A DNA stretch of 21,095 nucleotides. It comes from a virus. Taxonomy: Duplodnaviria > Heunggongvirae > Uroviricota > Caudoviricetes. The stretch lies in the IMG/VR virus record IMGVR_UViG_2534681832_000043. One strand, given 5' to 3'. The position numbers were made by a program. This document shows, in pieces, positions 12,001 through 15,000 of this stretch; the stretch's first letter is position 1; every line of letters starts with the position of its first letter.

Positions 12001-15000
12001 ACCCTGGAAGGGCAGAATAAAGCCGCGAATGATTTCTTTGGTTCTGGTTTATATAAAACACAGGCAGATCAGGCCCGTTATCAGAACCTTGTCTCAGCAG
12101 AAGCTACCGGGGGGCTTGGCTCAACAGCTACCAGTAACCAGTTATCTTCCATTGCGCCCATGCTTTATAACAATTGGCTTAGTGGGCAAATGCAAAATTA
12201 TGGAAACCTGCTAAATGTCGGGATGAATGCGGCATCAGGGCAGGCAACGGCAGGGCAAAACTACGCCAATAATACCGGGCAACTCTTGCAGGGGCTTGGC
12301 GCTATTCGTGCAGGTCAGGCGCAGCAGCCATCCAGTCTTGCGCGTGGTATTGGTGGGGCGGCATCAGGCGCTTTAGCGGGTGCGCAACTTGGTTCCGTTG
12401 TTCCGGGTATAGGTAATGTCGCTGGGGCTATTGGTGGTGGGCTTATTGGTCTTGTTGGGGGGCTTGGATTCTAATGGCGACATGGCAACTTGGCGGGCTG
12501 CCTAGCATGGCACCGCAAAATGATAATGCTCCTCGTTCTTCCGTTCCTCAGCCTGTGCAGTATCAGCAGCAGTCAAACGTAGGTTTAATGGCGCTACAGG
12601 GGCTAAGAGGCGTTGCTGAGATTAATCAGCAGGCACGTCAACAACAGCGTAAAGCAGAGTTTCAGAAAGCATATGCCGGGGCTTTTGAGTCTGGAGACAG
12701 AAACAAAATGCGCAGTCTTATTTCTGAGTATCCAGAAGAATTTGAAAGCGTTCAGAAAGGGATGGGCTTTATTGATGACGACCAGAGAAATTCTATTGGT
12801 CATCTTGCGACTAGTGCTCAAATCGCATCTTCGCTCGGAACTGGGGCATTTGGAAAATTCATAGCAGATAACGAAGATGAAATGCGTCGCTTGGGAATTT
12901 CTCCTGAGTCTGTTGCCGAAATGCATGTTAATGATCCACAGGAATTCCAGCGGCTTGCTGGTAGTATGGCACTGTTTTCTCTCGGTCATGAGAAGTATTT
13001 CGATATCAAAGATCAAATGGAAGGTCGGGATATTGAACGTGGCAAGTTGGCAGAGACAATCCGCAGCAATCAGGCCAGCGAAGCACTTCAGGCGAGAGGG
13101 CAGGATATTAGCCGAGCAAATGCGTTAACGTCAGCATATGCACCAACAGCAGCAATGCAGAATTACAATCAGTACGCTCAAATGTTAAAGGCGGATCCAG
13201 AGGGGGCGGCGGCATTTGCGGCAGCGGCTGGAATTAATACAAACGCCAAAAAATTAATGAGTGTTAGAGAAAACGATGATGGCACTGTCACAAAATACTA
13301 CACAGACGGAAGTGAAGAGCAGGGAAAACTAAACCAGCCAATATCTGGAGTGAACCGCCCCGGGTTTCCTGGAGAGTGTTTTATCTGTGAACTCAGGCTG
13401 CCAGATCATCGTTTCCGATGGAAGCATAATAAGCTTTTTCTGCTTCTGCCGGAGGAGTATGGCCCAGCCTTCCCAGCAATCGTCGATTGTTATACCAGTC
13501 CACCCACGTTAGTGTGGCCAGTTCCACTTCTGCACGGTTTTTCCAGCTCTTACGGTGTATTACCTCCGCTTTGTAAAGACCATTGATGCTCTCAGCCATC
13601 GCGTTGTCATACGAGTCGCCTGTACTCCCTGTTGATGCCAGTAATCCGGCTTCTTTTAGTCGCTCCGTATAGGCCAGTGACACATACTGAGAGCCTTTAT
13701 CGCTGTGATGGATGGTGCCAGACGGACGACGGGCCCACAACGCCTGCTCCAGCGCATCCAGCACGAATGTCGTTTCCATAGACGATGAGACCCGCCACCC
13801 CACGATGTATCCGGCAAACACATCAATGATAAACGCCACATAGACGAAGCCCTGCCATGTGCTGACGTAAGTAAAATCAGCCACCCACAGCTGGTCAGGT
13901 CGTTCTGCCACGAACTGACGGTTTACGCGGTCGCCTGCGGCAACGGCTTTCCGGCTGATGGTCGTACGGACCTTTTTACCCCGGAGAACACCGGCAAGTC
14001 CCATAACCGCCATGAGACGTGCCACTGTACATCTGGCCACCCTGATTCCTTCCCGTAACAACTGACGCCAGACTTTACGCACACCGTACACCTGATGATT
14101 TTCATCGTATACGCGCTGTATCTCTCTCTTCAGCCAGTCGTCGTGCTGCGCACGGGCACTGCGTTTATCCGGATGATGTCGCTGTTGCTGACAATGGTAA
14201 TACGTTGACGGGGCAATATGCAGTTCGCTGCATACCGGTCCGACCCCGTACTGCTCACGCAGCTTATCCAGCAGTGGCATCATTTTTTCCAGAGGCGGTC
14301 GAACTCCGCCTTCGCAAAATAAGCGGAAGCCTGGCGAAGGATATCGTTACTGCGGCGCAGTTCACGATTTTCACGTTCCAGCTCTTTCAGACGCTGACGT
14401 TCAGCGCTGGTGAGCCCACCATCACCGCCCCCGGTATCCCGCTCATGCTGGCGAACCCAGACACGCAGAGTCTCCGGCGTACAGCCAATCTTTGGGGCAA
14501 TGGAACAAATTGCCGCCCACTGTGAGTCATATTCATCCTGACTTTCCAGAACCATACGAATCGCCCGCTGACGGACTTCGGGGGAAAAACGAGTATTTTT
14601 AGTCATCCTGTTTACCTCTTTCTCAGGGAGTTTAGTCTCCAGGATTTCCGGGGCGGTTCAGGAGATGGGTTTCGTCCAATAGCTTTGCCAACAGCCCAAA
14701 AGATCATGGAAAAGTCGCCAGAAGGGGCTAAAAAAGCTGCTGGATTTGCATACAGAGTTAGGGATGCTCTTGATTCAATGGATACACTGAAAGGCCAGCT
14801 TAGCCCACAGCGAGTGGCGATCATTAATAATGCTTTGGGTAATGGGACGCTGGCTAACTTAACGCTCACCCCAACAGAGCAGCAATACGTTGTTAATGCT
14901 AATGACGCAATAATGGCAATACTCCGTCAGGAAACAGGGGCAGCTATCGTACCTGCTGAAATGTCAAAATATTATCAAATGTATTTCCCTCAGCCTGGCG

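Follow-up and report, generated by a model that had tools for sequence, protein, structure and literature searches.

In the 21,095-nt stretch of DNA analysed here (the window), an insertion sequence lies inside one gene of an operon of phage-type ejection proteins, and the locus raises the question of whether a working gene was recently broken by a simple transposition, what kind of element carries that gene, and what its interruption would mean for the neighbouring genes. A sequence-only reading had proposed a recent, clean IS629-like insertion into a gp20-like gene, in a module that was probably functional until then. Our comparisons lead to much the same core: an IS629/IS1203 copy almost certainly transposed, recently, into codon 293 of the gp20-like gene of an EcCIMP1-like island, duplicating the sequence GGAG.

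The inserted element and its target site

IS629 belongs to the IS3 family and transposes by copy-out/paste-in. The 1310-bp copy in the window runs antisense to the host operon and splits the gp20-like gene in two:

12474..13350, plus strand: gp20-like ejection-protein gene, 5' part, codons 1-292 (Pfam Inj_translocase, residues 33-213)
13347..13350, unstranded: target-site duplication GGAG, left copy, 4 bp (single GGAG in empty sites)
13351..14660, minus strand: complete IS629/IS1203 insertion sequence (IS3 family), 1310 bp, 100% identity over 1..1310 to annotated copies
13351..13375, minus strand: terminal inverted repeat at the orfB end (right in IS orientation), 25 nt, by repeat pairing
13393..14283, minus strand: IS orfB, 296 aa, DDE (rve) catalytic part of the transposase (Pfam rve 9.3e-28, HTH_21 3.7e-18)
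14209..14325, minus strand: programmed -1 frameshift signal (ALIL pseudoknot) across the orfA/orfB overlap (Rfam RF01497)
14280..14606, minus strand: IS orfA, 108 aa, helix-turn-helix DNA-binding part of the transposase (Pfam HTH_Tnp_1 2.4e-12)
14636..14660, minus strand: terminal inverted repeat at the orfA end (left in IS orientation), 25 nt, by repeat pairing
14661..14664, unstranded: target-site duplication GGAG, right copy, 4 bp (single GGAG in empty sites)
14665..15209, plus strand: gp20-like gene, 3' part, last 181 codons and stop (in-frame rejoining, 473 aa)

The boundaries, length, inverted repeats and intact orfA and orfB given in the sequence-only reading were reproduced in every coordinate and number. 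The two arms are imperfect, being complementary at 22 of 25 positions (88%), and have the ends TG...CA (TGAACC...GGTTCA). Both reading frames are intact and consecutive with an ATGA overlap, orfA aligning with positions 1-86 of the NCBIfam transpos_IS3 profile and orfB scoring 316 bits on it against a cut-off of 160. The ALIL pseudoknot is matched at full length (RF01497 model positions 1-117 of 117; 121.5 bits, gathering score 50) and PGAP labels identical IS copies 'programmed frameshift'; the copy carries the frameshift signal for the OrfAB transposase, with frameshifting itself predicted. Over its full 1310 bp the element is 100% identical to copies that in O157:H7 and other E. coli are annotated as 'IS3-like element IS1203 family transposase', and identity over this length to many E. 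coli records means that the call is not due to chance. Matched in this way to annotated copies, the element is IS629/IS1203, within which the published sub-types are I/IS1203, II and III.

With IS629/IS1203/IS3411 (IS3 family, IS3 group; E. coli and Shigella) the element shares its 1310-bp length, the 25-nt imperfect repeats with TG...CA ends, orfA/orfB and the ALIL-type -1 frameshift signal, as well as the 3-4-bp target duplication, and like most IS629 copies it is located in prophage-like DNA. Target duplications of 3-4 bp have been reported for IS629, and in O157:H7 62% of its copies sit in prophage-like elements (PMC3271280). The element itself is identical to known copies, and what is new is the insertion site alone, which is unseen in 5,426 complete E. 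coli genomes.

The empty site was aligned base by base in two strains, 500010 and MDR_56, where it reads CCAATATCTGGAGATGGGTTTCG, with a single GGAG exactly where the flanks in the window abut. More broadly, 303 complete E. coli genomes span a reconstructed 800-bp junction at coverage of at least 80%, and the 40 matches listed among these 303 each match the full 800 bp without a break, the best at 99.4%. Since GGAG is single in uninterrupted orthologous sites, the 4-bp target duplication, previously called from the window by itself, is demonstrated rather than assumed. Excision of the IS together with one GGAG joins 12474..13350 to 14665..15209 in a frame of 1422 nt, the exact length of intact orthologues, with one terminal stop and 473 codons for amino acids, as had been claimed, while excision of the IS alone leaves a frameshift and 18 stops. 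Such restoration is automatic for any insertion with a target duplication, and therefore has no independent evidential weight.

A near-full IS629 copy is present in 3043 of the 5426 complete E. coli genomes, at a median of 4 and up to 53 places per genome, and multicopy repeats of this sort are a classic source of misassembly, by which the element could have been mis-joined here to a gene that is really intact. We consider this extremely unlikely, because a mis-join would not produce a perfect duplication of exactly the four bases that occur once in the empty site, with the two flanks meeting to the base, and because the two junctions are colinear with a single gene.

The ejection cassette and its host island

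The split gene lies in a cassette whose other three genes are intact:

11342..11803, plus strand: P22 gp14-like gene (DUF2824 / phrog_651), intact, opening the cassette (Pfam DUF2824 1.5e-61; phrog_651 1e-66)
11797..12474, plus strand: P22 gp7-like ejection-protein gene, intact (Pfam P22_gp7 1.9e-72; phrog_598)
15209..17314, plus strand: P22 gp16-like ejection-protein gene, 701 aa, intact (phrog_770 5.8e-155, residues 19-700)

The restored protein matches Pfam PF16928 (Inj_translocase) at residues 33-213 (196.9 bits against a cut-off of 29.7; 4.7e-58) and phrog_917 over residues 1-473 (4.2e-110), and its gene sits between the gp7-like and gp16-like genes in the order 14-7-20-16 (DUF2824 / P22_gp7 / Inj_translocase / phrog_770). 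Judged by family and position, the split gene is a homologue of P22 gp20, a gp20-type ejection protein, in agreement with the earlier assignment. An identical gp16-like protein in other assemblies has a precomputed match to Pfam Phage_P22_gp16; no NCBIfam models matched any of the four cassette proteins. The sequence-only reading had placed the interrupted gene third in its operon, which holds for the gp14-gp7-gp20-gp16 cassette but overlooks a conserved, PGAP-annotated 53-aa ORF (11164..11325) immediately upstream.

The cassette has the same four families, order and overlapping stop and start codons as the P22 late genes 14-7-20-16, which encode the ejection proteins (E-proteins) of a trans-envelope DNA conduit; in the window TAATG joins the gp7-like stop to the gp20-like start and the gp20-like stop to the gp16-like start. 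P22 gp20 itself is packaged in virions, ejected, and forms a periplasmic part of the conduit (PMC8954989; bioRxiv 10.64898/2026.09.03.749273). The products in the window, of 153, 225, 473 and 701 aa, are within the range of P22-like phages, for which sizes of 229-230 aa (gp7), 431-471 aa (gp20) and 609-722 aa (gp16) are given (PMC8954989). The gp20-like protein is about 46% identical to those of sequenced E. coli P22-like phages over the N-terminal 212 residues only, and its best full-length phage relatives are in the APSE phages of Hamiltonella (52.5% over 93%).

Unlike in P22, the cassette stands on a satellite lacking coat, portal, terminase and tail genes. The island is ~20 kb, without capsid, tail or lysis genes, and its only virion-related genes are the four of the cassette. 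Its landmarks, together with an int-alpA RNA also found in the window, are:

1..1260: int
2436..2639: Phage_AlpA
7073..9427: primase
20327..20614: PerC

This gene content, with the relatedness set out below, places the window among EcCIMP1-like phage-inducible chromosomal islands (PICIs), satellites of P22-like phages, and not among prophages. EcCIMP1 itself, a PICI found in E. coli MP1, is mobilised by the P22-like phage Kapi1, with which helper-dependent excision, circularisation and transfer have been demonstrated (PMC11773190); the paper describing it was the only one found in the literature on such a cassette carried by an island. The two islands share the gene order int, alpA, antA/B antirepressor, DUF4222, ash/icd, small ORFs, primase and 53-aa ORF, followed by the cassette (DUF2824, gp7-like, gp20-like, gp16-like) and PerC. 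Sequence relatedness is partial. EcCIMP1 aligns to 8068 of the 21095 bases of the window, at 95-98.6% in two main blocks and 82.6-87.2% in short blocks of the accessory region; identity is 95% at the nucleotide level over 5.5 kb (2629..8097), and 98% and 99.6% for the gp14-like and gp7-like proteins. The integrase, the gp20 C-terminal region, gp16 and the accessory genes differ. The primase is of the DUF5906 type in the window and of the DUF927 type in EcCIMP1, the gp20-like proteins are only 48% identical, over the N-terminal 187 residues only, and the 701-aa gp16-like protein has no similarity detectable by BLASTP to the 906-aa lytic-transglycosylase type of EcCIMP1. The window also differs in having AbiD in its accessory region and in its IS-split gp20-like gene, and while EcCIMP1 is integrated at thrW, the closest relative of the island in the window (ETEC1721) lies between yicC and dinD. 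The satellite nature of the element that hosts the operon had gone unrecognised in the earlier reading.

Age of the insertion

The best reading of the insertion is a recent, private and simple transposition. When 12474..15209 was searched against the 5,426 complete E. coli genomes no record covered at least 80% of it, and the exact 31-nt pattern of the left junction had 0 matches both in GTDB species-representative genomes and in JGI metagenome contigs. Exact look-ups of the 370-aa chimera encoded across the left junction and of two C-terminal fragment products (167 and 174 aa) found none on record, a weak negative, since alternative starts may be chosen by gene callers and the contigs of draft assemblies end at IS copies. 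In public data the insertion is so far private to its source strain, and the junction, being absent from all other genomes searched, is a strain-specific marker. No paper on this particular insertion was found in the literature.

Neither half of the gp20-like gene contains stops or indels. The restored gene differs from its orthologues at 7-14 positions, and against 10 intact orthologues it has one private substitution (S361T, conservative), compared with 0-4 in each of those orthologues, so that there is no sign in the sequence of decay since the insertion. Synonymous and non-synonymous differences number 6 and 6 against strain 500010 and 4 and 9 against MDR_56, counts too small to speak for relaxation or constraint. 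Recency, as proposed earlier, is thus upheld by an IS identical to other copies, a perfect duplication, a nearly unaltered gene and a junction absent elsewhere, but is weakly bounded: in a comparison not rooted by an outgroup, a single private substitution in 1.4 kb would fit any date from yesterday back to many thousands of generations ago.

The weakness of the dating, which rests on this 1.4-kb gene, and the heavy recombination of the island family, in which the gp20/gp16 part of the cassette is mosaic relative to EcCIMP1 and in 488-aa variants, leave room for an old insertion, or for an allele that was already disrupted when it was inherited or imported; either would be uninformative as to whether the module worked recently in this lineage. 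Such a history is very doubtful given the absence of any difference between this IS copy and others, the state of the duplication and of both gene halves, and the failure of junction, chimera and fragment products to appear in any of the collections searched.

The proposal that the module was probably functional until then has indirect support. The three other cassette genes are equal in length to those of relatives (462 nt for the gp14-like gene), and the intact 4659-nt module is colinear, at identity of at least 99.2%, in 60 of the 60 best-matching complete genomes. About 1,400 genomes carry such cassettes. The cassette is not universally maintained, as gp16-like pseudogenes occur in related islands of strains 6409 and EC38 and a widespread variant lacks gp14 and gp7, and this limits the claim of function up to the insertion. 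Strain M15 has a different gp20 C-terminal variant. Nothing was found that contradicts the insertion itself.

Probable consequences for the cassette, and insertions in relatives

By entering codon 293 and duplicating its 4-bp target, the copy truncates the gp20-like protein after 292 native residues. As it stands, the 5' part reads into the IS and stops at 13586, predicting a 370-aa chimera that would keep the Inj_translocase domain, lose the C-terminal 181 residues and gain 78 nonsense residues derived from the IS. Between this premature stop and the gp16-like start lie 1622 nt of untranslated antisense-IS RNA, and as the gp16-like gene is normally translationally coupled, its expression is probably reduced too. 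The polarity on the 701-aa gene suggested by the sequence-only reading is accordingly plausible. Within the IS, the plus strand yielded no strong intrinsic terminator, just a weak 5-bp stem at 13360-13372, in the inverted repeat, and no outward promoter was found at the 14660 end; counts in this promoter/terminator scan were no higher than in shuffled sequence, so that the scan says nothing on polarity. An in-frame TTG ORF at 14685..15209 could in principle partly restore coupling.

Knock-outs by IS629 in prophage-like DNA are a well-documented origin of strain polymorphism in E. coli. An IS insertion is an ordinary, well-understood type of mutation, of a kind already known, and the present one has little importance as such. 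Its interest is that the gp20-like gene has been knocked out naturally, and the gp16-like gene probably knocked down, in a member of this satellite family; loss of gp20 function would presumably affect satellite transfer or helper interference, and the comparison of IS-bearing with intact alleles, such as that of ETEC1721, is an opening to learn what the cassette does for the satellite.

Further insertions are seen in the cassettes of relatives. MDR_56 has an IS629 copy in its gp16-like gene, in opposite orientation and with 1 mismatch to the copy in the window, M15 has an IS3-family copy and an IS4 in its gp16-type gene, and the cassette of O157:H7 YB14-1 is 1313 bp longer than in sister strains. 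That MDR_56 might share the insertion in the window, as equal span lengths could imply, is ruled out by the position and orientation of its IS.

These independent hits, together with the gp16-like pseudogenes of strains 6409 and EC38, raise the question of whether the insertion is not neutral, the loss of gp20 and gp16 having been selected because of cost or of conflict with helper or resident phages, with IS629 as a potentially reversible off-switch; the IEE protein promotes IS629 excision in EHEC (PMC9943667). We think this unlikely. The 60 best-matching modules are all uninterrupted and colinear, the preference of IS629 for prophage-like DNA (PMC3271280) would lead one to expect a few hits by chance among the cassette genomes, and there is an ascertainment bias in that MDR_56 and M15 surfaced through a search score raised by the IS.

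It is quite improbable, too, that ejection cassettes of EcCIMP1-like islands are in general a recurrent target of IS inactivation in which the off state is advantageous and IS629 with IEE forms a reversible switch. Possible advantages would be relief from the cost of cassette expression or from conflict with helper phages or SieA-type exclusion. According to the abstract of PMC9397093, IEE-mediated excision reverses an IS insertion in lacZ of STEC O121:H19, likewise an IS-split gene whose frame is recoverable by losing the IS and one copy of the duplication; the kind of IS is not named in that abstract, and the likeness to the window is one of recoverable frame only. If there were such a switch, the window would represent one 'off' state, and a truncated gp20 that retains its N-terminal domain might even act against P22-like phages by interfering with their virions.

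The element and its empty site

An IS629-like element flanked by GGAG copies had been described from the sequence alone within the gp20-like gene of the window, and all of the coordinates and numbers given for the element, its reading frames, its repeats and the duplication were reproduced. Reading 13200..14800 with scripted boundaries gives the layout ...CCAATATCTGGAG / TGAACCGCCCCGGG ... CCGGGGCGGTTCA / GGAGATGGGTTTCG... (slashes at the ends of the element), with GGAG on either side.

Parts of the insertion sequence
13351..14660, IS element, 1310 bp, reading frames on the - strand
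14280..14606, - strand, orfA, 108 aa, Pfam HTH_Tnp_1
13393..14283, - strand, orfB, 296 aa, Pfam HTH_21 and rve

The termini are inverted repeats of 25 nt each, complementary at 22 of 25 positions in a repeat search, and the two reading frames overlap at ATGA, an overlap spanned by a full-length ALIL frameshift pseudoknot (121.5 bits; gathering score 50); orfB matches the NCBIfam IS3-transposase model with 316 bits (cut-off 160). All 1310 bp are 100% identical to copies that carry the annotation 'IS3-like element IS1203 family transposase' and occur both in O157:H7 strains and on chromosomes and plasmids of other E. coli, and a near-full copy is found in 3043 of 5426 complete genomes, at a median of 4 places per genome with any. 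The isoforms of IS629 include IS1203 and IS3411, its sub-types being 4-5% apart; its target duplications are 3-4 bp, and 62% of its O157:H7 copies lie in prophages or prophage-like elements (PMC3271280). Duplicating 4 bp within a phage-related island is thus usual for it, and the insertion is a standard one by a known IS3-family element.

Joining 12474..13350 to 14665..15209, with the IS and one GGAG removed, gives 1422 nt with one terminal stop and 473 aa, an exact restoration of the frame as had been claimed; removing the IS while keeping both GGAG copies produces a frameshift. An 800-bp query representing the empty site, with the two flanks joined through one GGAG, is matched at a coverage of at least 80% in 303 complete genomes, and each of the 40 matches listed covers all 800 bp in one unbroken piece, the best at 99.4% identity. 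In base-level alignment, strains 500010 and MDR_56 read CCAATATCTGGAGATGGGTTTCG at this site, their GGAG being the end of the left flank of the window and the start of the right. Because the relatives uninterrupted here carry a single GGAG, the target duplication is demonstrated against real intact alleles. No relatives were seen with the gene split at a site free of the IS, the arrangement named beforehand as evidence against the insertion.

Age of the insertion and the cassette in relatives

The restored gene differs from 10 intact orthologues at 7-14 positions; one change, at nt 1082 (S361T), is the window's alone, intact orthologues have 0-4 private changes, and the remaining three genes of the cassette have standard lengths and no stops. 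The window's IS copy is itself identical to many others. The insertion junction was not found in any of the 5,426 complete E. coli genomes searched, in species-representative genomes or in metagenome contigs, and look-ups of the 370-aa chimera and of two possible versions of the C-terminal fragment gave no database record. All of this fits an event that would be recent, as the sequence-only reading proposed, and private to the strain, its absolute date lying beyond these data.

The module of this type, 4659 nt when intact, is uninterrupted, exactly colinear and at least 99.2% identical in all 60 of the 60 best-matching genomes; at least 80% of it is present in 181 genomes and some variant in 1434 of 5426. 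Related islands do have further, independent IS629-family insertions in the gp16-like gene. MDR_56 (locus L002, 15677..16986) has an IS629 copy in the gp16-like gene, in opposite orientation and with 1 mismatch to the window IS, and M15 has in its gp16-type gene both an IS3-family copy (locus L003, 7671..8980; 50 mismatches to the window IS, CTG duplication) and an IS4 (9151..10497), while O157:H7 YB14-1 (H171) is 1313 bp longer than its sister O157:H7 strains. Such independent hits could be taken to reflect selection, an improbable reading given that IS629 favours prophage-like DNA and that MDR_56 and M15 surfaced through their IS raising the search score; we therefore ascribe the insertions in relatives to background IS activity and do not count them as evidence for selection. 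Two of the relatives sampled, 6409 (L006, 3922..5736) and EC38 (L009, 3922..5737), have islands with 99% identity elsewhere, but their gp16-like gene carries a pseudogene annotation (frameshifted or truncated) and holds no IS, so the cassette decays by point mutation too.

The cassette also varies in content. Against window 11313..12843, the gp14-like and gp7-like genes are absent from loci L011-L015, L019 and L020 (about 4357..6001 in each), and about 1.5 kb is swapped for about 0.44 kb, so that gp20 is a 488-aa variant whose N-terminus differs. The cassette of these islands is the gp20/gp16 pair only, and many such assemblies encode a 701-aa gp16-like protein identical to the window's.

Probable consequences for the ejection proteins

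Once restored, the protein of 473 aa matches phrog_917 along its whole length and, at 4.7e-58, the Pfam family Inj_translocase ('DNA/protein translocase of phage P22 injectosome').

Neighbouring genes of the cassette
P22 gene 14 type, DUF2824/phrog_651
P22_gp7, Pfam P22_gp7
701-aa 'DNA transfer protein', phrog_770

Identical copies of the 701-aa protein elsewhere have a precomputed match to Pfam Phage_P22_gp16, and the P22 late operon likewise has the order 14-7-20-16 and TAATG stop/start overlaps. A conserved, PGAP-annotated 53-aa ORF lies immediately upstream of the cassette (11164..11325). The best full-length phage homologues of this type of gp20 are those of the APSE phages of the aphid symbiont Hamiltonella (52.5% over 93%), and in P22-like phages of E. 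coli and Shigella the match is confined to the first ~212 residues, with an identity of about 46%.

As it stands, the predicted gp20-like product consists of 292 native residues and 78 from antisense IS sequence, keeping the conserved N-terminal domain (residues 33-213) and losing the C-terminal 181 residues. P22 escapes the injection block imposed by SieA through mutations in the C-terminal parts of gp20 and gp16, which suggests that these parts have a role where the DNA conduit reaches the inner membrane (PMC10461980). Ribosomes now meet a stop at 13586, 1622 nt ahead of the gp16-like start, and the TAATG coupling is gone. Rho-dependent polarity of IS insertions is established, so expression of the gp16-like gene is probably lowered as well; a simple promoter and terminator scan gave neither a strong intrinsic terminator nor an outward promoter.

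An EcCIMP1-like island

The observation and the interpretation of the sequence-only reading are both correct; what is added here, besides a proven empty site and target duplication and the evidence for a private and recent event, is the context it missed: the operon hit by the IS is part of an EcCIMP1-like satellite of P22-like phages. The integrase ATG is the very start of the window, whose other end falls a little before dinD; the att sites are outside, and the window therefore corresponds essentially to one whole island. The closest relative among complete genomes, in ETEC1721 (L004, 4001..24014), sits between yicC and dinD.

Features of the island
1..1260, integrase
4085..5113, Ash-family gene with C4 and isrK RNA motifs
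Others: int-alpA RNA, AlpA, AntA/B antirepressor, DUF5906 primase, ejection cassette, AbiD, PerC

EcCIMP1 has the same architecture and shares 5.5 kb at 95% identity; it is a PICI for which experiments showed induction and transduction by the P22-like phage Kapi1, and the authors who described it singled out its DUF2824 and 'DNA transfer' genes as possibly involved in packaging (PMC11773190). Its gp14-like and gp7-like proteins are 98-99.6% identical to those of the window, whereas its gp20-like protein is no more than 48% identical, and that within the N-terminal 187 residues alone, and BLASTP finds no similarity between its 906-aa lytic-transglycosylase type protein and the 701-aa gp16-like protein. 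The gp20/gp16 pair is thus an exchangeable cassette, and the replacement looks like a mosaic exchange of proteins whose C-terminal regions hold the SieA-escape mutations of P22. In the comparison of window 12474..17314 with EcCIMP1 (L010), the C-terminal part of gp20 and the entire gp16-type gene are replaced. Since the interrupted operon lies in such a satellite, the strain is usable as a natural mutant for testing what the ejection cassette does.

The int-alpA RNA motif (Rfam RF02996, 1269..1335, + strand, 60.6 bits) lies directly 3' of the integrase gene and is followed, before alpA, by an ORF of 321 aa (1356..2321) that is unannotated and matches no family. Within the long 'ash family' ORF, two Rfam motifs stand in tandem on the + strand, isrK at 4466..4542 (65 bits) and C4 antisense RNA at 4567..4654 (79 bits), resembling the c4-icd-ant immunity arrangement of P1/P7; the annotations of MDR_56 and EcCIMP1 have an ash gene and an Icd-like gene, each on its own, in the corresponding region. 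Downstream of the cassette, an accessory region (17377..20067) contains an AbiD/Abi_2 abortive-infection gene (18648..19610; PADLOC AbiD, 2.7e-57) flanked by small - strand ORFs of unknown function. Relatives hold an ImmA/IrrE peptidase pair or other genes at the equivalent position, which thus behaves like a variable defence slot.
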